A DNA stretch of 63,881 bases, the filler included, from Sluysia triapertura (Eukaryota), in assembly GCA_046118255.1 (NCBI GenBank). It is 5 parts of 5 records of this genome, joined end to end, with 100 filler letters (N's around TTAATTAATTAA, not from the genome) between each part and the next. Parts side by side here need not be neighbours in the genome. Positions count along the whole stretch, not along the records: positions 52,990 to 63,881 come from JBJNIA010191885.1; 4 more parts are not named here. One strand, written 5' to 3'. The notes below the pieces were generated by a model. It was not told the origin of the DNA. It saw only the letters and a program-made list of their open reading frames with translations, and ran no database searches. Of the stretch, positions 2,278 to 63,881 are shown in pieces; positions within the stretch are counted from its first letter, which is position 1; each line of letters starts with the position of its first letter. The position numbers and the translations under genes are program-made.

Positions 2278-5200
2278 TAATTTAAATTTATTTAATAATT
2301 TATTAATTGTCATAATGTTAAATTTATTCTTTCTTCACGTATGTTCACTTTAAAACATGCCAAAAAATAAAAATAGAAGATAATTTAGGCATTTTGGTTT
2401 CTAACCCTTTAACCGCCGGTGAGCGCATTTTTGTGAACATAAATTTATTTGAGAGATCCATAAGTCACTAACAGTCATATCAACCCATTTAGTCATTCTT
2501 TCACGTTAATAATTGTTGATGTTGTTTATAATAGCAGTCATAAAGTCGTTATCAGAAAAATATTCTAAGTAGGTTAGTTGGTCCCATGATTGATTACCAA
2601 TATTTGGTTTTGCCTGGCATGTATAATTATGAAAATTTGGTTGAAAGTGCGTATTTTGCCACGTCCATGTATCATTCTGTAAATATTTAAATTATGCAAA
2701 ATATGTAAAAAAATTGTATTAAAATATATCAAAAATGTATTAAATTATGTAAAATTGTAAATAATTAATTTATTGATACTTTAAAAATATTTTATAATGT
2801 TGTAATTAAAGAAATTGTAAATTAATTAATTTTAGACTTTACAATATAAAATACGAAATTTTGAATTTCAAACTTTAAATATTTATATTATATCACGTCA
2901 ATTATTTTTAAATTATTTTTTGAACTTTAGAATTGAACCTTAAATATTTAAATATTTACATTATTGTGAATGAATATTCGAAAATCATTTGAAAATAAAA
3001 TGTTTATATTATTAAATTTAAATATCGGAAATAGATAGCAAACGGAATTATAATAACATAAATAAAACATATCGTCTCTACAAATCACCATAACAAAAGC
3101 TAAAGACAACGCGACTCACTTTTTGAAAAATTAATATAGCAAACATGAAGAGGGCGATGTTGAAGATATCATCGAAAGAGAAATTTCTGAAGAAACACCT
3201 TCATATCCTGAATCAACATTGATGAATCAAATACTGACAATGAAGACCTATTTATTAGTAACCGGAGGAAGAGAATGAGGATAATTTCTAAATCAGAAGA
3301 TGAATGGAAAAATGAAGTAGATAAAGTTACACAAAACTTTCAATGACATGATAAACAATCTTACAATTACAATAAGTTTCGCTAGGAATTATATTAAATT
3401 AATATTTATAAACAGATTAAAAAATTCTATTATTGGAACTTCATTAAAAATAATGTCATTTTATTTTTGAAATTAATGCGTGGTGAGCTACATTGATCGA
3501 AAACCAAAAATAACATTAAAAAGTTTATCAAAATTGTAATTTCACAGTATTAAAAGTGTCCCACTTTAAATCATTCAATATCAAAACTGGGATATTTCGA
3601 GAATATTTGGTCAGTTATACGAAAAGTTAGCACACTCGAATTCTGATGGTAAGAATAATTAAGTACCTTTTTAATTTGTTTTGAACGACCAGTCGGGATT
3701 TATTAACACTTACCAATATCATATAAGACTTCGTAAGAAAAGGAACGCATGCTTTTCAGCTTTCAACGAAAATGAAGCATTATTTGCTGCGGAAACATAG
3801 AAACCATAATACGAATAAAAGCATTTGTTTGACTATCATTACCATATCTAGAGTAAACTGTTTCCAGATTCAATAAACATATGAAATGTATTTCTTTGAC
3901 CCAAAAGGCCTTCATCTTTTATTGAATCACAGAATTTATTTGAATCGAAAATTTTTCTAGATTACCTAAACCAAAATTAGTATCTGATCTTAATTGCCTA
4001 ATTACATCAACATGTTACTGTTCCCATACAATTCATTAGTGGAACCATTATGAGTGGTACAACTTCTTAACATTGTTATTTAACCTACGTTTTTACCAAG
4101 ATGAAAGATTATTTGAATTGTATTTAGATGAATTATTCTGATCAGACAATTTTGCATTTCTATCATCATGCAGAAATGAATCAATACCACAAAACGAAAT
4201 AGATAACATGTTTTCTTATCTCAAATTAATAACCAATCAAGAACATGACCAATTTATTACCAATTATAATATTACTCAAATTATTTTAAATCTAAATATT
4301 TGAAGCGTTTCTAACACGAATATCTATTTTATTTTTTCGGATCGATTAGACATAACACCATTAAGAACTTGTAATAAATGTAATGGTTCTAATGCATCGC
4401 AAATATCAAATTATGACTCTTATTAAACTATTGTCTATTTAATTCTTTTACACCAATTTTAATAAGTTCACTCATTTTGATTCATTAAATTACTTTAATT
4501 GGAATTGGATGTATAAATTTATAAATATTTTCTAATCATTTAATTTCTCCAATTATATGGAAACATGTGGTTGGTAAATGTAATTAGTCATATTTCATAA
4601 TACACTGAAGTATGATGTAATAATTGATGTACTATTACAGTACATTGTATCACTTGTTATTACTGTTATTATTGGTTATCGTATTAGAATTAGTCATTTA
4701 TAATACAATTGTTGCAAATGAAGATGCTAATGCTTGAAAACACAAATCGATAAAACTAATGTAGTTTATGATAATGGTGATGATTGTAATTTGATCGATA
4801 AATGATGTATAATAAGCATGTGAAATACATCTGCAATCAACAAAAATTTGTAAATGTTGCAGATATTTATGAAAAACAAATGATGGAATAATTTCGCAGA
4901 TTTTCCAGATTTATTTGATATATAATGTACTTTTTATAATTTTGTAATTGTAAGCTTATAATGTTCAATGTACGAAATATTTTTATTAAGTATAACAAGA
5001 GTGATTAATTTCGCTTTTTAATAATAATTTTTTGTACTTTCAATTATTTTTAAACGTTATTGTTACATACCACATAATTAAATTTCTGTCTCTGGAAGTG
5101 CTGAAACAATTATTTCTTTCGTATTTGGCATGATGTTACATGAATTGGAATTAAACTCAGTACATTTTCTTGAACATGAACAATGTCGTTTATGTAGTTT

Positions 5201-6683
5201 GAAAAACTTATAAGAATATCACAGTTATGATTCGCGATAAAAACGTTAATGTTCTTGGATCTGAACGTATCCTTGATACAAATTACTATATTCATTGATA
5301 GCCTTTTGATGAAGAATTAACAGCACAAAATAGTTATACACCAGTATACAGTTAAAAGTATAAGGTACAAGACATATTAATGCTGCCTCTAACAAACCAT
5401 ATGCAAGTGTTCTATTATGAAAAAGCTTACCTTGCATCTACAAAATTATCTGAAGGTTAGTTCGCCTAATAGATACGACTTAAATCTACGAAGAAGGCGA
5501 CCTATTAGGATTTTAAAATTAGTCACATTATGTTTTAAGTATAAGAGTAGCAGCTTATGAAACTTTTAAAGCAAATATATTCAATAAAAATTATATTTTA
5601 AATTAGCCCTTTTACGGTTTAGCGAGAAGCAATGATTTTTCCATGAAAGAGAATTAATTTTATACAGGCCGATTATACAAAAATCAAATATAATAATGAT
5701 AAAATTTTGATAATATTCTGTTAGATCTGATATTAACGCATTTTAGTATGAATGTTGAGCTATCCTTATTACGGTCTGTCACTAAAAGTAAAAATAACAT
5801 TAAGTGAGGTTTTAGGTCCTACTTTTTACAATAAGGACTTTAAACTTATAAAAATAAACTTACATTCATGGATTGATTAAAAAATGAAACTGTCCAAATT
5901 TTTCTCGCCTTGATTTTTTCATGTTTTTCTTCGTTAAATTTCCCTATTTATATAAAATTTAAGCAGCCATTTTGCATATTTATTTTATTTAATAAAACAA
6001 AAATGTTAATATTTATATTTAAAACAAAGAAATTTTTTAACTTTAAATATTTTATATTAAATTTTAAATATAAACATTTTATTTTATTTGATTTTTAACT
6101 TTACGTATTTTTTTATATTATTATACTAAAAATAAATAATAAAAATTGTCTTTATGAAAATAATATTAAATAATTTTTAAAATTCAACAAATGTCTAAAT
6201 GTTTTATGTAAATGTTTTATGTTTTATAACTCAACAATATAATAATACCATAAAGCTATAAAGACAAATATATGACGAAGATTATGAGAAATACAAATTA
6301 CAAATAAAAATCTAAAAATAAAACAAGAAACAATTACCTGAAGTTATTTATAAATATCCAAAAGCAATTGCAAAAACAAATATTATACAGTTAATTCTGT
6401 TATAATTAAAAACAAAATACCTTTAACAAAAATAATAAAGTAATAAACTATGCAGGATTCCAATCTGTAATCAAAAGAAAATGCAAGACCTTGTTCATAG
6501 GAACAATGCAGGAGCAATAAAACCGAGCTTCTCTCCATTAGCTTCTAATCATTAATTTCATTTGTTAAAAAGAAAGATATGACAATGAGGTTTTTGTCGA
6601 CTTCAGGTTTTTATAATATAAGAACCAAGGTCAAGTTAAGTAAAAATGATAAAATTAAAATGAACCAACTAAGGTGTAACTTA

Positions 6684-9870: not shown

Positions 9871-11841
9871 AGTTAAATTCATCATTTTTAAGTATGTCAA
9901 TAATAATGAAAATGGTTATTTTAATGTAGAAGTAATTTATGAAAAAATAGATCGAGTAGAGTAGAAGAAAAAAGAGAGTTGATTGATAATCGAATTTACA
10001 GGTTGTACCATGTAAATGTCAAAGTCATTGTGGTCGATTTAATCTTTAAAAGAGGTTTCGATGATTTGTGTAAGAATAATTTCTGATTGTGAATTTGGGA
10101 ATTATTGGATGACACAAAAGTATAAAATAGAATAATTAAACCTTGCACAAACATTTATTAACGTTAGATGATCCATGCTGTCATTTTATCATAATTTCTG
10201 TCATTTTATTTTAATTTTTACTTAAGTTAATCGTTATTTAATCACTTAAGATTAAGTTATATGACAAAATGCTTAAATTATTTGACAAGAGGATTAAATT
10301 ATATGAAAAACCGCGTAATTAATTAAAATCTTAATAAACGCATTCGTTGAATGCAGAATTTTATGATAATGTTTCTTTCAGTTAGTCCTTGATAGGGAGC
10401 AAAGTCAAATTTTAATTAATTCTCAAAAATAAATTTTTAACTTTTACCTATTTCGAATGTTGTAGTGAGAATGAATTGAATATGAGATGATTGATATGAA
10501 TGAGAATAATTTGAAAATGTTTTCTATTAGAATATGAGAAGTAAAATAATGGTTGATCTTTAATAATGTTTTCTGAGTCTTGTACCATATAATTGTCGGT
10601 CTCTTCTGCATTATATGTTCGAATGATTAGTGTATAAACAATTTTATAAAACTCAAACGTGATTGGATAATGAGAAAGTATAAAAATGAGTAGTTGTAAA
10701 ATTTTATAGGATAAGAAATTCCATATTGATTATTTAATCATTTTATTATAGGATCCCACTTTTGGAAATGTTGTAATGTTTTACAAAAATTTTCTCATCT
10801 TTTCTATAGGAAGAAATAGTGCCTATATTACTTGAATATTTCCATGTATTATTATTATTATTACTATTACTATTATTATTGCGTCTGTTTCAATTTTTAT
10901 TGTGATTGAATAAAAATTATGTCTTATTCTGGTTTGTTAATTACATTTGGTTAGATATAAAATATGTTCTGGTTTATTCTAAAAACCTACCTAACATAAA
11001 TTTTATTCTAAAATCTAAAGAGTTCGCCAACAATACAAGACTTATCTAGTTAAGGGTTTGCCTAAAATTATAAAGGTTAATAAGGTCGTAAATATTATAA
11101 TTACTTAATCTATTCACTTACTACAGTTAATATTAATAATTTTATTAGCTATTTTAGATCCTTATTTAAAATAGGACTATAACAATATATTTTAAAGGCT
11201 TGTTTAAAATAAGCTTGTCAAAAATAAACTTTAATTATATTGAAACTATACAAGTTAACAATTACTGATAATAAATTAAACTTTTTAATAATTTATTACG
11301 ATATTACTAAAATAAGAATGATTATAGTCAATAGTCAATTTATTATATTAAGGTTATATAAACATTAAAAGTTTTAGGAGTATAAAAAACTTATGCGAAT
11401 GAAGCTAACGTGATCCCAAATTATAGTAATCCTCTTTCCAATCCTTCGATAATGAATTCTGTCGTAATTGAATTTATCTTCTGTTATTTTTTAAATTAAA
11501 GTTTTATATTAAATGAACTTACTTATTAAACACTTAGATAATTTCCTGTTTCCGTTAACTATTCAAATTCTTTAAATAATAATCTATTTCCGTTTTAAAT
11601 ATTTATAATCACATATTCAAATTATATACACTAAACAGTATCTGTTTTATAAATGTGTTAGTTATAATAATAAAATTTTAATTATAATATAATGTTAAAT
11701 ACTTTTCTTATTTTACTTATTAATTTCTCATTATTTTACTTATAACTCTTATATCTTAATCATACAATTAATCATAAAATTTAAAACAATATTATTTTCA
11801 ATATTATTGGTCAATATTTTAACCAATAAAATCAATTTCAG

Positions 11842-12248
11842 GTTAAATTTCCAATCGCATATTCATTGATTGTATATCGTGATCCAGATCAAGTTTACAG
11901 ACTTTTCAAAGCCATTTATCGTCCATTCAATCTTTATTGTTTCCATGTCGACTCGAAAAGTTCCTCTTCTCTGCATCGATTTGTACAAGAATTACATTCT
12001 CTTTATGACAATGTAATTGTACCTTCTAAATTCATTGATGTGGTGCACTCTAAATTCAGTGTACTGGAAGCAGAGTTATTGTGTATGCGTGCACTTTTAA
12101 ATTATTCAGAACAATTTTCATGGAAACCAGCAGCCCAATGGAAATATTTCATCAATTTAACTGGCCAAGAGTGGCCATTGAAAGTAAACCTAGAAATAGT
12201 CAGAATTCTGAAAAGTCTTCGTGGAGCTAATTTGGTGGAGAAGTTGAA
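11842..12248 (+). CDS. GCNT: Exon of a core-2/I-branching beta-1,6-N-acetylglucosaminyltransferase (GT14/Branch family)
   Basis: FPIAYSLIVYRD..RLFKAIYRPFNLYCFHVDSKS and WKYFINLTGQEWPLKVNLEIVRILK are Branch-domain hallmarks. Acceptor tttcag|GTT at 11841/11842; donor AA|gtaaat at 12248/12249. Confidence 0.92.
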
Positions 12249-12414
12249 GTAAATAATTTTATACAAATTGAATTTATTGCGATTTTAAATATGAAATTAA
12301 ATTTTTAATACTATCTCCTTTCAAACATGATTGTCACGTTAGTTTTCTATACAATATATATATATATGTAAGTATAGTTGAAAATAATGTTTTATATTAT
12401 AGATTAATGACAAA

Positions 12415-28202: not shown

Positions 28203-28302
28203 NNNNNNNNNNNNNNNNNNNNNNNNNNNNNNNNNNNNNNNNNNNNTTAATTAATTAANNNNNNNNNNNNNNNNNNNNNNNNNNNNNNNNNNNNNNNNNN
28301 NN
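28203..28302. other. Assembly spacer
   Basis: N44-TTAATTAATTAA-N44. Confidence 0.99.
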
Positions 28303-39857: not shown

Positions 39858-39957
39858 NNNNNNNNNNNNNNNNNNNNNNNNNNNNNNNNNNNNNNNNNNN
39901 NTTAATTAATTAANNNNNNNNNNNNNNNNNNNNNNNNNNNNNNNNNNNNNNNNNNNN
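39858..39957. other. Assembly spacer
   Basis: N44-TTAATTAATTAA-N44. Confidence 0.99.
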
Positions 39958-41574: not shown

Positions 41575-44277
41575 TTGATTTTAGTTTTTAGAATTTAATT
41601 GATTTTCGGGTTTTCACACCAAATTTTCTAATGAAAAATGTTTAACGTTCTTATTCTCAAACAAGCTATTCTACAAAAATATTAAACTCACTTCTAAATT
41701 CTCATTTTTCATATCAATCATTTCATATTAAATTCATTATATTTTCATCATTCTAAGTATTAAAAATTCAACATTCCATAATTTTCTTATATGAACTCGG
41801 TCAAACTATACTTTCATCGAAAGATCTTTTCGAATTTAACATATCATTCCGCATTCAAACATTATTCAAAAAACGTACTTTTTCTTAATTAAGTTAATTA
41901 AGAAATTAATTAATTAATCAATTTTTAGACTTAATCCTATTTATCTTCATAAGATTCTCAGGAGATTTTAGATATTTTCACCTTCACCACTCTGACTCCT
42001 TTTTCTACTTCTTTACGTTAATTACTACCCTATTAAATTTATCTTTAATATTAGCAATGATTTTATTAATATTAGTGATTTTATTTCTCCAATTTTTTAA
42101 AGATTTTGGCTACTTTATAAGGTCTTTGTAGTGAACTCAAGCTCAAAACACTCTAATTGTGAACACAATCGTAAATAAACATCAGCAGAAACCAACACAT
42201 TCATTGGAAATTAAATCTTAAACAAACTTCAAAACAATTTCACAAAAAATATCAAATCAAATAAAAACAAAACACAAATACAATTTTTATAACATTAAAC
42301 GCCTCAAAACCTTATAATTCTGGTTATAATTCGTTGTACCGATTTTTGTCAACATTACTGCTATGTCATTGTTGTTCTTTAAAATCATTAATTGTACTAT
42401 TTTATCTTCATTTTATTTTTATGTCCTGAAAGATTTTGTTTCAGTACTGTAACCCAAATGCCTTATCATAAACCCTGTGCTAATTATAATTTTCCTCAAA
42501 AGCCAAATCATTTCTGTCAGTATGTACAAGTGCTCGAAACACATGAAGATTGGAGTAATTATTGCATACCATAATAATCAAACTGAAGATTTTACAACGT
42601 CAAATTTTAAATGAACAATACGATCACAAACTGGATCACATGCTGAAAAATACTGAAACGGAAGAACAAGAGATATATAAAATACACACAATCAATTCAA
42701 CTAATAATATCGAGTTACCATTAAATTAATTACTATTAAATCGATTTAATAGATTTAGTACTGAAATTAGTGGCTGGTCAGATGAACCAATTTGACAGTC
42801 ACTGGTTATTTTTTACAGAAGATCGTTGGATGTACATACTAATCGTTCGTAGTCATTATCTGATGTTAAGAAGAAAATAGAGGATAATAAATTGAGAATT
42901 ATGAGACAACAATAGTAACATATACTTTTCTGACTATAATAATCAGGATTTTGAAGAATTTAGACAATGTATATATAGTTTCAATAATGATGACAATAAT
43001 AATGACTACGATAATAATAATAATAATAATAATTAATGGGTATTAAAATATAATAGTTATGATTACTGTTAACTGATAAAAATAATAATAATAATAATTT
43101 AATTAATTACAATAAATTATCTACTGATAACTTTGATTAGTTTCAAAATAATTTAATTATTATAAATTCATCTGAATTTTCAAAAAAATACTAATCAAAA
43201 AAGTTTTATTAGCTTCATCATCAGCATCATGAAACCTCAAATTACAAAAAATTACAGATATAAACGTGGATTTGCCGTGAAAAATGTGTATCAAGCCCTA
43301 TTATAATTTGAAATATATTTTATGAATAACTTTATAAAATTTGTTGTGTAATAATTATTTTATGGGTCGTACTACGTATTATGACATTGTTATTATTTCT
43401 CTATTTATAACATAAATTTGATTTTATAGTTAAAAATAATGCTAATAAATTAAATAGTCATAAACGAACGATTTTTATAAAGTTATTAGTAAAAGTAAAT
43501 ATTTTTATTAACTAAATACTAAAATTGCTTTTATAAATAAAGAAAATTTGATATTGGAAATTGAAAAACATTTTACTTTAACTAATTAAATTATAACCAT
43601 GAATTTAAAAGAAAAATTGAATAGTATTTCATGAAATAACACAACACTTGGAACTTGCAATATTGGTTAAATTTCCTATTGAAATTTATTTTAAAATATT
43701 TTTTTGTTTGAACATTTACGATCTGTGTTATTTATAACATTATAATAAATAGTTAATTGAGTTTGAAATTGCGCAATTCGAGTAATTTTTGCAACGAACT
43801 TCAAGGAAACTTCTGTTCAACATGAACAATGTAATAAAATTAAGAAACAATATGAAAATTTAGCAATTTTGTATGTAAACATTTTTCGTAATTCGTCACT
43901 TATGGTTCACTTAGCTTTAAATGTAAGTAAAATTGGCCACTTGATAACTAGTAAAATGCCACAAGCTGTCATTAAGATCATAGGCGAAGTTAAGTGTCGA
44001 ATTTCTTTAAGTATGCTCTAGTCTTAAATGCTTATTGAGGTTTCAAAGGTTCTTAAAGGTTAATAAGGTCTTTGATAATCTCATGGTTCAAATGAATCCT
44101 AATGCCTTTAAATGTTTTCCAAGGTATTCTGAAGCTTCCACAATTTCATATGGGTCTTTTGAACTTCAAGATATTCCTCAATTGTCAATGTTTCTATAGA
44201 TGTTTTAATCTTCATGATTCTTACTCCAACAGTATCTGTAATATTCTCTTGACCCACAGTTTTGGGCAATCCCAATT
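41575..44277 (-). repeat. Repeat family R1 copy split by a ~1.9 kb insertion (about 42127-44020)
   Basis: 44277-44025 matches the first part and 42122-41575 the continuation of R1 in reverse orientation. Confidence 0.65.
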
Positions 44278-47200
44278 GCATAAAAAGATAAACATAAAAC
44301 AGCTTTTTCATGAATTCGAAAAAATTCCATATGGATTGATATGCGCATGAGAAAAGTTTCAAATAAGTATGAATTTTGTATGTAATTAAACGTGTAATTG
44401 TCAAAATTGTTTGTTGGATTTAGTCAAAGATAAGGGTTATAGTTTATAGTATAAGATAAAAGTAAGTGTTATTGAGGAAATACAATTAAGCATTACGACG
44501 AAATGCGTTAAAGGAATAAGTGTATAAAACATTTAAATCAAAATAAAAGAAAGATGCGAAAAGATAACCTTTTAAAAGGCTTTACTTGTTAAAATATAAA
44601 AGTGCATTTATTATTTAATTTAATTTAATATTGTTTAATTTAATAAATTTCTTGAAAATGTTTGCACATGATAAAATAACATTAGAATTAATGTGTAGCG
44701 TTGAATTTTATTAGTATTCCTAATGTTGAAATGTTGCAAAAATGTCGACGCAGATAACGCAAATAATTAGTTATTTTAATTAGTTTTTATAACGTAAGAT
44801 TAAATTTATACAAGTAGCAGAGCATAAGTATAATTAAAATACATATTAAATTGGTGCTCACGAAGATGCACGGTTGATTCATGATGTATTGCATAAAAAG
44901 CTTTCTCTAGAAAAAAATTTAGTATTTAATCAGTTTTGTTTATTTTAAGTTAACATGTTAATAACAAATGCTATAGTTAAGTAAACATATGTTAATAATA
45001 AAATCCTATAGGAGACATTTATTAGGTCATAAACTATTCATTATAAGCGAATTTCTATTTTGAGGTAAGCAAATTTTACGAAAATTCTTGTTACTTTAAT
45101 AATATTGCTATGGTTTATGCTTAAAAAAAGTTTAAACCTATACTTGCAAAATAGTTTTCTGGAGGTGAGTTTGCCTAATAACTACGACTCATTTCTGATC
45201 GAAAGCGGTCTATTAGGATTTTGTCTAAAGGCATAAGAATGTCTTGTAAGAAGATATTAGTTCTATATCTGTAATTATAATATTTTAATTATATATAATG
45301 TACATTCAAAAATTTGTCCTTGTGTTTAAGATAAATATCGTGAAATAATACGTCTTGAATTTTATATAATATATTAAAAATGTAAATTAAAATAGCAGAA
45401 TTATGGTCTAGTTTTCCGAAATAAATTGAGCTAGCCGGTTATGGTCTAGCCTGAAAAATCAAAAGTATATTTTAGAATTCTAAAATTAAAATTAGCTTGT
45501 TTAAGGTTTAATCAAAATAGTTCAACAATTTAATAATAATACAAATTAAACATTATTATTAATACAAACTCAAAGACAAAAAACGTAACATAAAACGTAG
45601 GTAAAATATATAATATTGATATGATTTTAGTCTTAATATTCAGAATCTACTTTTCTGATATTAAATTTAATTAATTTAATTTAAAATTAAGATCTAGCGT
45701 ATCTCAAAAATGATTTTACGTGTAAATATCAATTCTTCTAATTATAGTAAGAGTAAAACTTATTAGAAACTAACTTACTAGTTCATGGATTTTCTTTTGA
45801 CTGCCTAAAACCGGTGCTGAATTTTGTCAGAAAATTAGGTGTTAAATATTTGTGTATTATTATAAAGAATTCCCTCTACTTATATTGTAAATTGCCATCT
45901 TGTTTTTTAATAAAATTTTGAAATTATTTTTTAAACATTTAATTTATTAATTATTTAAAATATTAATGATTTAATAATTTATATTTTACTTACTAATTTT
46001 TTTGTTTAATTTTATGTTTATAATAAATATAAATATTTTAAGTAAAGCATTAAAAATATATAAACATTAAAACAAAAATATTTACGTAATATTTATAAAT
46101 ACACAAATAACAATATTGTAATTATATTATCATTTTTGTTATTACTATTTTCAATATTTTTTAAATTTATAATACTTACTGTACAAATATAATTTAAAAT
46201 AGCTAATAATCTTAAAATAGAATTACTTGCAAAAGAATATCAGTAATTTTAAAATTATCTTAAACATCCTCAAATAAAAGAAATTAAAAATAGAATGCAA
46301 GAAACATACATTCGGCCTCACCAAAATTACTTTCAAAGTTCAGGTTACAGATTTGTTAGTAACACCAGAAAAACAGAAAATCCATCATTGAAATAAAATA
46401 TGTTCAAATAAAAAATACAAACCAACATATAATAACTAATGCAAACTACATAACTACAATTAAATGAATTGTAATTTGGCAAAATCAATGTGGAAAATTA
46501 ATTATATAAGTATAATTAACCATATTATTACACATGCATTCGAATCATTTACATCAGTGGTGTCAAACACATAGCCCAAGGCTTGATAACAATGTATAAA
46601 ATAAGTTTATTTTAGGATTAGATTGAAATTTTAATTTAAGCATTTTAATGTTAAACATTTGAAAGGGCATTTGAGCGCCCCTTTTAAGTCGGTAACATCG
46701 ATAAAGTAGATCGTACCAAAGAGTCTTGCAATCGTTTTTTTGACAGTTTCTTCGCAGTTGCAAATTTCAGGTATAATTTCCCTAATTTATTAAAACTCAT
46801 CAAATAATTGACCGTAAGTTTTAATTAAATTAGAGAGAATTCAACTAGGAGTGAAAAATCATAGTATCAATGTTTCATAATTATTTAGAAAATTGGTTTA
46901 ATCATAGATTTTTGTATAAAATCTTGATTAAGTGTTTAATTTCTAAAGACATGTTTATATTGCATATAAATAAAACAGTGTTATTTATGTTTATTTTTCA
47001 GAAAATAAAAATTATGTCTGCTTGTAAAAATAATAAAAAAGATCAATACAAGGCGAACACAGAATTTTTCAGCCAAGATGAGAGTTAAATTACTTTTTTA
47101 TAGAGCTAAAAGACAAAGCTGCATGTTTAATTTGTAAAAAGACTTTAAATGTTTTTAAAGAATATAATTTAAAACGCCATTATGAAATGCATTCAGAATG

Positions 47201-52889: not shown

Positions 52890-52989
52890 NNNNNNNNNNN
52901 NNNNNNNNNNNNNNNNNNNNNNNNNNNNNNNNNTTAATTAATTAANNNNNNNNNNNNNNNNNNNNNNNNNNNNNNNNNNNNNNNNNNNN
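52890..52989. other. Assembly spacer
   Basis: N44-TTAATTAATTAA-N44. Confidence 0.99.
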
Positions 52990-60150: not shown

Positions 60151-61547
60151 TTAGAAAAGTGAAAGTTTGTTTTTGTAGATTTGAAAAAAATAAGATATAA
60201 AAATAATTGCGATGAATTTTACAAGGTTGTGGTATATTGTTAAAGAGTATAATTTTAGTTATGATGGATTAGTTTTTACAAGATTTTTAAAAAAATTTGT
60301 AATGTATATTTTAAAGATTTGTTGAATTTTGACGTATTTAAGGTGAGATTTTAGTAAAATTTGTTAAGGTTATTAGGTTATTGGAGTCATACTTAATTGA
60401 TACTCTATAATACATTTGACATAGCGGCAGTTAAAACTATTTTTGCTGGCTTTGTTGATGATTTTTCAAATATTCGAAGTCTTAGTAGAATCCCAAATTG
60501 ACTTTCAATATCAACTTAAGAAAAAGAAAACTATGTTATTATTATCATCACAATTGTTTATATTTATTATATTATTATCATTTTATTAATGTCATCAACA
60601 TTATGTAATATTTTATGCTAAATAGTAAAGACAATGTAAGTATTTTATTATGTTGTTTTATTTTTAATTTCATGCGTTTCATATAATTTATTTTGTAAAA
60701 ATTTTGTTAAAAATTATGAAAAATGCACTAATTTAAGATAATTGAAACTTCTAAAAATGTTAAATTTTAAATGTTAAGCTAAAAGTCGATTGCCATCATC
60801 CTAAATTTAGTAAATTGAATTATTTAGGTATTACTTCAAAATCTTCAGGTAAGATTGATGCTTTGTTTCTTAGTTTGGTGCTAATTGCGAGGATAGTGAT
60901 GAATTATGTAGAAATGTTCTATGTCCTCCAAATACTGTAAAATATTTTTCAAATTTAAATGTCAAAGTTTTTTGAATGAGTGCTATTCAGAAAATGATTT
61001 ATTAACTAAAACGATTGTGAAGAGTTCTCTGGAAAGAGACGTTACCACCATAATGTAATAACGTAGCTGTGACATACATGTTCTAATAATTTATATAAAT
61101 TAACTAAAGAAATTGTAGCAGGAATTGGCAATTCGAATAGTGATTTTGATGTTCTACTAGTATCCAATTACTATTTCGAAGACTATGAAAAATTAATGAT
61201 GCAAGAAGCTATGACCATCAAAATTTATAGCAAATGCCAGAAAGTCTTGTTATCCTTTTCAATATAAATTTATAAATTTATAAAATCATTCTTATCCTAG
61301 ACGTGATGTACTATGCGTTAAGTTAGCTGGAGATCAAAGTTACTGCTGTAATGAACCTAGATCTGACAGTCACAATTTGTTAATTCGTTACACTTTCGAA
61401 TGTTTGATTCCTGATTCTTACAATAAAATGTTACACGGATCCATAGAAATTGAGGCTGATTTAAAACATATTAGATTCTAGAATTCTGCGTAATAAGCAT
61501 GACCCAACCTCAAAAAGATTAATGAATAAATCCTATGAATTTATAAG

Positions 61548-62087
61548 TCACCTTACCATCCTCAAAATGACTGATTGGTAGAAAGATTTAATCGCACATT
61601 AACGAACATGCTTCAATAGTATGTCAACGAAAGGCAAAATGATTGGGATTTGTATGTATCACCGTGCTTATTCGCTTATCGTTGTTCGGTTCATCCAGCA
61701 ACTAACTTTACTCAATTTTTTCTAATGTATGGCAGACATTCTAACATGTCAGTAGATTTAGATTGGGTACCACCTACATCACAATACCTTGAAATACCAG
61801 AGTATGTAACTATCATGAGAGAAAACTTACAGAATGCCTGGAGCAGTGCAGGATTACAAATGAAATACTCACAAGTATCTTATAAGGATAGCTATGACAA
61901 AAAGACTCAATAACACAAATTTCAAGTAGGAGATAAAGTATTAGTGGATTATCCACTTGCTAAATTAGGACATTCACCGAGATTGCACAAACCGTTCAAA
62001 GGTCCTTACGAGCTTATGAAAATTGCAGCTACTAATTTATTTATCAAGGATCCGAATAAACAAAACGCAGAAACATTTGTGGTGTAA
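61548..62087 (+). mobile_element. Ty3/Gypsy integrase C-terminal half (degenerate)
   Basis: SPYHPQND*LVERFNRTL, WDLYVSPCLFAYR.SVH.AT.FT.FFLMYGR, YDKK..*HKFQVGDKVLV, LHKPFKGPY (GPY/F motif); in-frame stops. Confidence 0.95.
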
Positions 62088-62208
62088 GTCAGAGTAAAAG
62101 TTGCGAAACCGAAAAATCGTAAAAACTAATTTAAAAATAAAACCAAAACAGAAAGTCTGAGTTAAACCACACTCGGTTCAATCATTTATCAGTAAACAAG
62201 TAGTATTA

Positions 62209-62580
62209 ATGAATAGTTCGATACCTAACACAAATGGACATATAATTCACAATATTCATTTTAATGGTCGATGGACAAGAGCCGCAATTCATACAAGCGC
62301 CACTATTTCTGTTGTTCGCCGAAATTTTTTAAATTCTTGGGAATTATTAATGATGGTTTGCGATGTTAACAATCAACCTATAAATGTAATCGGTACGCTA
62401 GTATGTAGCCTAACTATTTTGCACCAATACATGTTAGTTACAGTGAACGTTTGGAACAATAGCCCGTATGAGTTAGTAGTAGGCATGGATATTTTTAGCG
62501 GATTTGACGATATAGTTATCCACAGTAAGTTGTTACTCCATGGAACACGAATGGTAGTTTGGTATCACTCAAATGTCTGA
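62209..62580 (+). CDS. Retropepsin-like aspartic protease ORF with an altered catalytic motif, downstream of integrase
   Basis: FNGRWTRAAIHTSATISVV (cf. xLDTGAxxSvi), INVIGT, and YELVVGMDIF (cf. dliLGmDfl). Confidence 0.65.
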   Translation: MNSSIPNTNGHIIHNIHFNGRWTRAAIHTSATISVVRRNFLNSWELLMMVCDVNNQPINVIGTLVCSLTILHQYMLVTVNVWNNSPYELVVGMDIFSGFDDIVIHSKLLLHGTRMVVWYHSNV

Positions 62581-62712
62581 TTCCTTAGTATAAACTTCGA
62601 ATTTGCCTACACTTCAGGAAATAAGCGCTGCAATCGAGAGTTCTAGTGATTCTGTGACATCGATGGATGAATATTCAGATTCTCAGGAATAGTTTAAGAC
62701 CATCCCAGTATT

Positions 62713-63489
62713 ATGATACTTAAAGTTACTAGAATACCAAAAGTAAAACATTCTTATTGGATAAAAATAATCTTATTGTTTTTTCTATGTGCATCTATGT
62801 TACTACCTGTTTTAGCTACTGAACCAACAGAAAAAAATGAATTTAGAAATATGAATATTGCGATTAACGATGGACGAAAACAAAAAATAGAAATTACAAA
62901 TATTTACAATCATGATTGGAAAATGAAATTCGTTTCTAAGAGAATTATTTTAAGACATAAGTTTGAAGTCTATTGTATTTACTTCAATCCATTACTTGTA
63001 GGAAAAACACATCATATTGATAATGTTCCACATTGTTTACATTACGCGTATCGCCCTATGTTAAAAGCTTTCACATTAGATAATGCTGAAAACACGCAAG
63101 TAGTACAAAACTTCATACGAAAATTGCAACACGATAATAATGAGTTATATTTGAATGTTACAAATCAAAGTAATGGAGGAACGCTAGACTTCAAAAGGGA
63201 TTATAATTCAACATTTAAAACAGCTGCATTTAGGAAAGAATCATACGAAAAACAGAATGAAAAACCAATAAACGGTTTATTTATTGTGCTAACATTATTT
63301 GCCGTAATATATGTTATTGCATGTAGCAATCTTTCGAAAACTCATAGGATTAAGCATAACTTATTACCCATAGTATTGTTAACGATAATTTCAGTTGTAC
63401 AACGTAACAGTCAATGTTACAAATCTGAGTATTTCGAATCTTATAACTCTGATACAGAAGTAAAAGTTTTGATCATAATATTATCATGA
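62713..63489 (+). CDS. Membrane glycoprotein-like (env-like) ORF of the Gypsy element; disrupted continuation to the window end
   Basis: Signal-like IILLFFLCASMLLPVLA, sequons NVT/NQS/NST, TM GLFIVLTLFAVIYVIAC, second hydrophobic LLPIVLLTIISVV; lies 3' of pol. Confidence 0.5.
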   Translation: MILKVTRIPKVKHSYWIKIILLFFLCASMLLPVLATEPTEKNEFRNMNIAINDGRKQKIEITNIYNHDWKMKFVSKRIILRHKFEVYCIYFNPLLVGKTHHIDNVPHCLHYAYRPMLKAFTLDNAENTQVVQNFIRKLQHDNNELYLNVTNQSNGGTLDFKRDYNSTFKTAAFRKESYEKQNEKPINGLFIVLTLFAVIYVIACSNLSKTHRIKHNLLPIVLLTIISVVQRNSQCYKSEYFESYNSDTEVKVLIIILS

Positions 63490-63881
63490 GTAAATGTTCA
63501 TATTCGAATGTACCATCTCATAAGGACGATGATTATCATTATACACACCACATCATTTTGACTTTAATCCACCACCAGGGATAATACCATCACCTTCTCT
63601 TATATACGAAAATGATATAGAAGGATATTATCATTTTACGTTTAACGGAATGCCATTGACCAATTTACGATCTACCTTAGTGGCTTATATCTGTTTAACA
63701 TTTATTTCGGATATGCAAGGGTTACCAAAAAATACTCATATGATAGGATTAATATCAAAGAATAACCAACCTCGAATTACTCTAGAATCAGGTCAAAAAG
63801 ATATAGTAGATTTCGCTTATAGAGAACTTGCTTAAAGAGAACAAAATCGGGTAAAGAGAACTTTTTGGTTCAAAAATGGCA

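Follow-up and report, generated by a model that had tools for sequence, protein, structure and literature searches.

The window, by which we mean the whole stretch of 63,881 nucleotides of Sluysia triapertura DNA that was analysed, ends in a decayed copy of a Ty3/gypsy element whose integrase (INT) groups with those of Gag-Env-Pol elements, and in which INT is followed by a second retropepsin (PR2) and by an ORF with the layout of a membrane protein. The reading that we prefer, with a probability of roughly 0.62, is that the membrane protein is an accessory surface protein and not a fusogen, and that PR2 frees the integrase. LTR retrotransposons are assumed to carry a single protease and no more than one env. 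The clade to which this copy belongs has two or three retropepsin domains in each sequenced polyprotein, the positions of which are movable, and a fusion of INT to a second membrane protein that follows it. A signal-and-TM ORF behind an integrase need not be env.

The features of the copy are as follows.

61509..62129, plus strand: C-terminal half of a Ty3/gypsy integrase, with the region of the last catalytic Glu, GPY/F at 62001 and the C-terminal domain; five stops.
62161..62580, plus strand: ORF of the second retropepsin (PR2), 139 codons from stop to stop, with the profile match at about 62251-62517.
62581..62760, plus strand: broken linker between PR2 and the signal peptide, with stops in all three frames; one contig of run X1 aligns with 29 gap letters.
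62761..62817, plus strand: predicted signal peptide, with a basic n-region, a hydrophobic core and a predicted cleavage site with small residues; the hydropathy of its 19 residues is 2.52.
62818..63267, plus strand: ectodomain of about 150 residues, with 2 Cys and 3 N-glycosylation sites; homologue searches were negative.
63268..63324, plus strand: predicted transmembrane (TM) segment; hydropathy 2.52 over 19 residues.
63325..63417, plus strand: basic loop of 12 residues, then another hydrophobic segment, with a hydropathy of 2.78 across 11 residues.
63418..63881, plus strand: broken remainder of the element, with a 100-codon ORF at 63533-63835 in another frame; it ends at the window edge.

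The copy begins inside the integrase and is cut at both ends. Homology to the C-terminal half of gypsy integrases starts at about 61510-61540 and continues in one frame, with YHPQ..VERFNRTL from about 61554, to near 62072-62085, and the frame of 195 codons has five stops inside it. The GPY at 62001 lies within the GPY/F module typical of Ty3/gypsy integrases, and the copy is assigned to Ty3/gypsy (Metaviridae) on this gypsy-type integrase with GPY/F. A search with the integrase read through, with X at the stops, gave 47 protein matches; the best five, all RT-RH-INT or INT proteins, are gypsy integrases with 42-50% identity to the window (best E 7.7e-59) and are set apart from the remaining matches. 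One contig of run X1 covers 60350-61753 without a gap and thus confirms the 5' truncation. With this truncation, the stops and a degenerate protease motif, the copy in the window is dead. An LTR pair was absent from all four of the contigs of relatives that were tested, these contigs being partial. The window is AT-rich, with about 25% GC overall and 32% GC over the last 2 kb scanned; planarian genomes are given as more than 70% AT in the available part of PMC11410931.

The initial annotation had placed a retropepsin-like ORF soon after an INT with GPY/F, and this is borne out. The first Met of the PR2 ORF is at 62212, some 130-140 nt past the end of integrase homology, in a frame one off from that of INT. 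On a profile made exclusively of the pre-RT proteases of six relatives, PR2 scores 36.4 bits, which was reached by none of 1000 shuffles (the best shuffle gave 10.6). Atlas gives PR2 a recognition of 2812 and a first match of 0.95, with the best ten of ten matches in one clan, and an alignment that includes PR2 retrieves DDI1, ASPRV1 and retroviral proteases from PDB. Judged by these sequence comparisons PR2 is a retropepsin (clan AA). An ORF of 139 codons was found in 8 of 1000 Markov simulations. Taken alone, the PR2 ORF matched no protease family in Pfam, none of the three candidates from its homologue search was usable, two PDB sequence matches were judged to be due to chance, and a single-sequence structure model had a pLDDT of 37.9, too low to use.

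The catalytic motif of PR2 in the window copy, at 62290-62298, reads HTS in place of D[TS]G, just as had been annotated, and copies related to it have the canonical form. Among the contigs of run X1, 37,720.6 of 37,736.5 units of depth differ from the window copy at the first codon of the motif (16 contigs) and all 17,787 at the third codon (12 contigs), and the contigs that differ read canonical DTG; run X1 is the only run listed as containing this sequence and possibly the source of the window itself, and thus gives no independent support. Canonical DTG is also found behind INT in three relatives (L002, L003 and L008). The claim of a gypsy element with an extra protease behind its integrase is supported. 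With regard to fusion of PR2 to INT or env the answer is divided, as the parts are in one frame in these three relatives, whereas in the window copy INT is one frame off from PR2 and stops lie between PR2 and the membrane ORF.

The membrane ORF (62698-63489, plus strand) has 263 codons in the same frame as the PR2 ORF, and none of 1000 Markov simulations yielded an ORF as long. Its hydrophobic segments are at 62761-62817, 63268-63324 and about 63361-63405, and its N-glycosylation sites at 63154, 63163 and 63205. The succession of signal, ectodomain, TM, short tail and signal that had been described in the PR2 frame is thus present, the second signal being recognised by sequence pattern only. 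There are five in-frame stops between PR2 and the membrane ORF and the linker (62578-62760) has 5, 5 and 4 stops in its three frames, so a fusion of the two is not evident in the window copy. Cleavage would be expected at the first signal peptide, and the second hydrophobic segment, which follows right behind the TM in the window alone and in none of the relatives, is likely to serve as the internal signal of a further unit in the lumen. The part of that unit that can be seen is poor in Cys (1-3 per frame across 154 codons), and the remainder at 63418-63881 has no Pfam match in any frame and a depth of 3.6e4-5.3e4 in run X1.

We found no matches to the membrane ORF in Pfam, PHROGs or PDB sequences and none in viral contigs, no usable homologue among 719 candidates, and by tblastn a single match (E 0.83) in 56 loci. 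Two low-complexity repeat proteins were rejected as homologues, and one bacterial match, which is short, driven by pattern and seemingly in an antisense frame, was put down to chance. The ectodomain was also considered as a form of the FN3-like repeat present in relatives, and this was rejected: it scores -0.6 bits on the profile of that repeat, with 859 of 1000 shuffles as high, a profile on which 3 of the 18 candidate repeats themselves fail when their group is left out, and hhalign against the clade repeat gives a probability of 0.3. The clade Env profile gave nothing above 0 bits over the 3' ORFs of the window. As homologues were found nowhere and the clade repeat profile failed, the role of the membrane ORF is assigned by position alone. 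With an ectodomain unlike the clade repeat, the clade Env or any family, the 3' ORF is likely to encode an accessory surface protein rather than a fusion envelope.

The depth of the run X1 contigs changes sharply at the start of the copy. Summed depth, which is not to be equated with copy number, is 29-75 over 60997-61522, whereas each of the nine bins between 61523 and the window end has 10,882-100,222, with about 1e5 in the bin at 61523; single contigs in the flank have a depth of 13-18. INT, PR2 and the membrane parts are all abundant repeat DNA, with no host gene among them, and the jump in depth from 61523 on argues against a single-copy host gene. Two run X1 contigs with deletions keep the order of the parts, one joining 62079 to 62563 (33 letters on the short side) and the other joining 62323 to 63548 (54 letters on the short side); none of the contigs listed covers the whole stretch from INT to the end. 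No RNA dataset is listed as containing the window sequence.

Elsewhere in the window there is a frameshifted short reverse-transcriptase fragment at 44245-44380 (plus strand), with weak tblastn matches to members of the clade. Host exons are found at 11830-12252 (plus strand), for a core-2/I-branching glycosyltransferase (E 3e-19), and at 21331-21858 (minus strand), with a weak ankyrin match. A duplication of about 0.9 kb is present at about 15935-16833 and 22904-23864, 7 kb apart, and the four 100-base gaps, at 14259-14358, 28203-28302, 39858-39957 and 52890-52989, each consist of two runs of N flanking 12 called letters.

The alignment of the five best integrases was used to scan metagenomes and genomes for relatives, which gave 31 and 24 loci, respectively; scans of other collections gave zero or one distant match. 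The INT tree has 18 rows and about 187 columns; L010 was dropped because the search for the anchor motif in it was negative, and P0005 and P0007 were excluded as duplicates of P0052 and L002, the last being the same as P0007. The window and 12 relatives, including P0052, L004 and L007, form one clade with support of 100/100, and the INT part of the phylogeny that the initial annotation had proposed as a check puts the window inside a clade with Gag-Env-Pol elements. L010, which is outside the clade, has an F-type env after Pol at 3993-6125 (Pfam Baculo_F, E 2e-32). One relative, L033, was filed as a Turicibacter MAG, and it and many of L034-L053 are eukaryotic gypsy-type Pol sequences in contigs of bacterial MAGs, where they are likely to be host contamination.

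In the case of Env the relatives are informative, as a fusogen of Pfam PF24664 (Monjiviricetes-type, class III) lies upstream of Pol in all three of those that reach far enough, with E values of 1e-83 to 5e-94. P0052 (3,735 residues), L007 (3,703) and L004 (3,426) are single ORFs in which Env is followed by two or three proteases and then RT, and in P0052 and L007 there is an N-terminal Gag, with Env between Gag and Pol. The order PR-RT-RH-INT holds up to INT in the relatives of the clade. The window itself has a relic of the clade Env at about 17800-18110 (plus strand), which scores 48.6 bits with the profile made from the three Envs, with nothing above 0 elsewhere; it is 33-40% identical to the Envs of L004, L007 and P0052 (E 1e-11 to 8e-10), matches PF24664 at E 0.004, and lies 43 kb along the window from the copy with INT and PR2. 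The suggestion that the lineage bears an env is thus upheld, with a class III Env ahead of Pol in P0052, L004 and L007. The suggestion that the 3' ORF is itself that env is not supported, given the upstream position of the fusogen in all three relatives and the failure of the 3' ORFs on the Env profile and in Pfam.

Behind INT, a signal, small ectodomain, TM and tail are found in 11 of the 12 clade relatives, mostly in one frame (L033 has one stop within the module); the exception is P0006, with no module in its extension of 148 residues. A strongly hydrophobic segment behind INT is present in 4 of 45 integrase matches, and all 4 are inside the clade. We aligned 18 candidate repeats of about 85 residues each from nine relatives; when each group was left out in turn, 14 passed with 0 of 200 shuffles, one passed with 1 and three failed. 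One repeat of L007, modelled by AF2 from 13 aligned repeats (pLDDT 73.1), gave 22 Foldseek matches at E <= 0.001 (best 2.2e-4), every PDB entry listed being FN3-type; viral structures gave no match at that threshold, and in VIA the FN3-type was again at the top, with a best Z of 9.1 and an rmsd of 3.7 over 83 aligned residues. The repeat sequence profile matches PDB weakly (best E 0.024), with all 17 matches to FN3-bearing proteins. The ectodomains behind INT in the relatives are thus predicted by this modelling to have mostly the FN3 beta-sandwich fold. L008 (about 4000-4390) and P0009 have a short Cys-rich domain in the slot, unlike the FN3-type repeat. The tails of both also have a PPSY motif, which we take to resemble a viral late domain.

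An intact DTG protease behind INT, in the same frame as Pol, is found in 3 of the 12 relatives (L002, L003 and L008). L002 and L008 in addition retain a DTG protease before RT, and L003 is cut inside its own. The layout of L008 is that of the window, namely INT, protease, short linker and signal, and the spacing from GPY to the protease motif is 96 codons in the window vs 87, 86 and 108 in L002, L003 and L008. A scan with a clade-derived profile in the plus-strand frames found a protease within 1.5 kb downstream of the integrase in these three loci only, out of 46 with an integrase match, several of which end soon after the integrase. The three proteases are only about 20% alike to PR2 of the window, and the retention of DTG despite this, and in nearly all of the run X1 depth, suggests that catalysis is under selection. 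On the INT tree the four proteases fall in three places and a single clade is rejected (p-AU 7e-6); the protease tree lacks resolution, and a single origin, with p-AU 0.23, is neither shown nor rejected there. The distribution may reflect repeated gain, repeated loss or swapping of modules, and P0009 is without a protease behind INT while its close sister L008 has one.

There are two or three retropepsin domains before RT in the most complete relatives, three in number. The relatives together have nine extra protease domains; five of these have a hydrophobic segment no more than 175 residues away, and the other four, in L002 and L003, are separated from the signal by 405-533 residues that include ankyrin repeats. 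In both of these a second, motif-less retropepsin-like domain is found behind INT (L002 4163-4430, L003 3750-4015), followed by the ankyrin repeats, and it might form a single-chain pseudo-dimer with the first. L004, which has three retropepsin domains before RT, has there, at about 4240-5320 (plus strand), a further cassette, made up of protease, signal, a single repeat, a Thr-rich stretch and TM, and by eye the repeat resembles those found behind INT. Separate ORFs for DEDD-type exonucleases follow the polyprotein in L002 (9043-10371), L003 (8592-9920), L004 (10617-12104), L005 (3712-5556) and L007 (12085-13470), all five matching Pfam RNase_T with E 1e-11 to 3e-3; L002 and L003 each have one more similar-looking ORF, with no Pfam match.

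In L002, L003 and L008 the INT, extra protease, internal signal, small ectodomain and TM are in one reading frame, and a mechanism can be proposed on this basis. The polyprotein would be threaded through the ER during translation and signal peptidase would free the ectodomain, but Pol would stay anchored through the signal segment, and its release would need a cytosolic cut. A copy of the protease beside the junction of integrase and signal would supply that cut locally, and the extra protease is thus likely to act by cutting the integrase free of the membrane-bound module. Nine of the 12 relatives have no protease behind INT, which must therefore be dispensable, and these would depend on the proteases upstream. 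The slot after the signal is exchangeable, with FN3-like repeats in most, the Cys-rich domain in two and a two-unit protein in the window. A more speculative extension, which we hold to be doubtful, is that in a lineage of invertebrate endogenous retroviruses a single polyprotein with 4-6 ER membrane crossings carries an entry system of two parts, a class III fusogen ahead of Pol and, behind INT, an exchangeable attachment or decoy glycoprotein (of FN3 type in most members and a new two-unit protein in the window), each with its own movable retropepsin; if true, there would be a division of labour such as that in paramyxo- and herpesviruses, within a retrotransposon.

The second unit in the window, cut off at the edge, could be a fusogen, and it has to be considered whether the 3' ORF encodes a genuine env polyprotein on the pattern of Gn-Gc or E2-E1, with a small partner followed by a fusogen after the second signal and with PR2 exposing the first signal in the manner of an autoprotease. 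The layout of signal, ectodomain, TM, short loop and signal does differ from the single-TM modules of relatives, the ectodomain fails their FN3-like profile, the second signal has some 150 codons behind it up to the window edge, where they are cut off, and the window copy lacks the region upstream of the integrase where Env would sit. We nevertheless consider this unlikely, as Pfam, PHROGs, PDB sequences and the clade Env profile all gave no match, the fusogen is upstream in each of the complete relatives, and the second unit has few Cys residues; class II fusogens are Cys-rich. That the membrane ORF belongs to an adjoining host membrane-protein gene is scarcely credible. The first Atlas match is to a Wntless-like TM cluster at 0.93, but the recognition of 1472 is under the mark of 2300, so the match is weak and the Wntless-like identity was rejected; the ORF is intronless with broken frames behind it, and the run X1 depth over it, 1e4-8e4 as compared with 13-18 for single contigs of the flank, argues against the host membrane protein that had been named as a possible refutation.

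The other two alternatives concern the order of the parts. A chance junction, in which deletion or nesting joined the integrase to a pre-RT cassette of protease, signal, ectodomain and TM from another element, draws on the presence of such a cassette in L004, on the different frames of INT and protease in the window and on the absence of a run X1 contig over the whole stretch. Against it, INT and protease are in one frame with similar spacing in three relatives, depth is 1e4-1e5 in each bin from 61523, the contigs with deletions (one for each join) keep the order, and the gap between INT and protease is too small for an LTR and gag; we regard it as very improbable. The order may otherwise be a trait of the family, with an extra protease that arose as a duplicate and is neutral, redundant or directed at the host, and that processing next to the membrane module does not need. 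The patchy distribution over three places on the INT tree, the difference between P0009 and its sister, the motif-less second copies in L002 and L003 and the several domains before RT are all as expected for this, and what counts against it is the DTG kept in three proteases so diverged from PR2 and in nearly all of the run X1 depth. It is on balance a rather improbable account, and we retain the reading of an accessory surface protein with a protease that frees the integrase.

The several retropepsin domains and the second membrane protein of this clade make it possible to ask how a Pol set between membrane proteins is released, and whether class III fusogens captured by retroelements use a partner for cell attachment. 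With regard to release there are parallels in RNA viruses, namely cleavage of the flavivirus capsid anchor and the alphavirus capsid autoprotease; in both, a protease of the virus separates a cytosolic protein from the signal that follows it in an ER-threaded polyprotein. These are serine proteases whereas the protease here is a retropepsin, and the comparison is an analogy only.

Closer parallels are found among retroelements. Burro / GYPSM1 are giant planarian gypsy elements, over 30 kb long, whose env is placed after Gag and ahead of the protease in the same frame, according to the part of PMC6431247 available to us, and P0052, L004 and L007 are like them in being single polyproteins of 3,400-3,700 residues with env before protease. 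Another likeness to Burro is that L002 and L003 have ankyrin repeats, and there are weak ubiquitin/SUMO-like matches in relatives (E 0.013-0.095); unlike Burro, none of BIR, MATH, BCL2 or dUTPase was detected when looked for in the relatives of the window. The Burro description, in that same part of PMC6431247, has one protease; neither a protease behind the integrase nor a membrane protein of FN3 type is mentioned. GAG-ENV-POL errantiviruses with HSV/gB-type Env are described from Platyhelminthes, Nematoda and Bryozoa in the available sections of PMC13524379, the flatworm entries among the nine rows listed there being of 12-18 kb with 1-215 copies. By that description P0052, L004 and L007 are like them in gene order and Env class; the protease is given there in the canonical scheme only, and chromodomains alone are described behind the integrase. 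In bdelloid rotifer LTR retrotransposons, as covered in the sections of PMC5408684 to hand, ORF3s encode small TM proteins and DEDD exonucleases in an exchangeable 3' slot, which the downstream DEDD-type exonuclease ORFs of our clade resemble; those ORF3s are separate ORFs, with fibronectin mentioned 0 times and an extra protease undescribed in those sections. A protease or FN3 membrane module behind the integrase of a gypsy element was unreported in the literature covered, and an earlier description may exist. By the grouping of its INT and the gene order of its relatives, the lineage of the window fits the known Gag-Env-Pol (Burro-like) gypsy elements.
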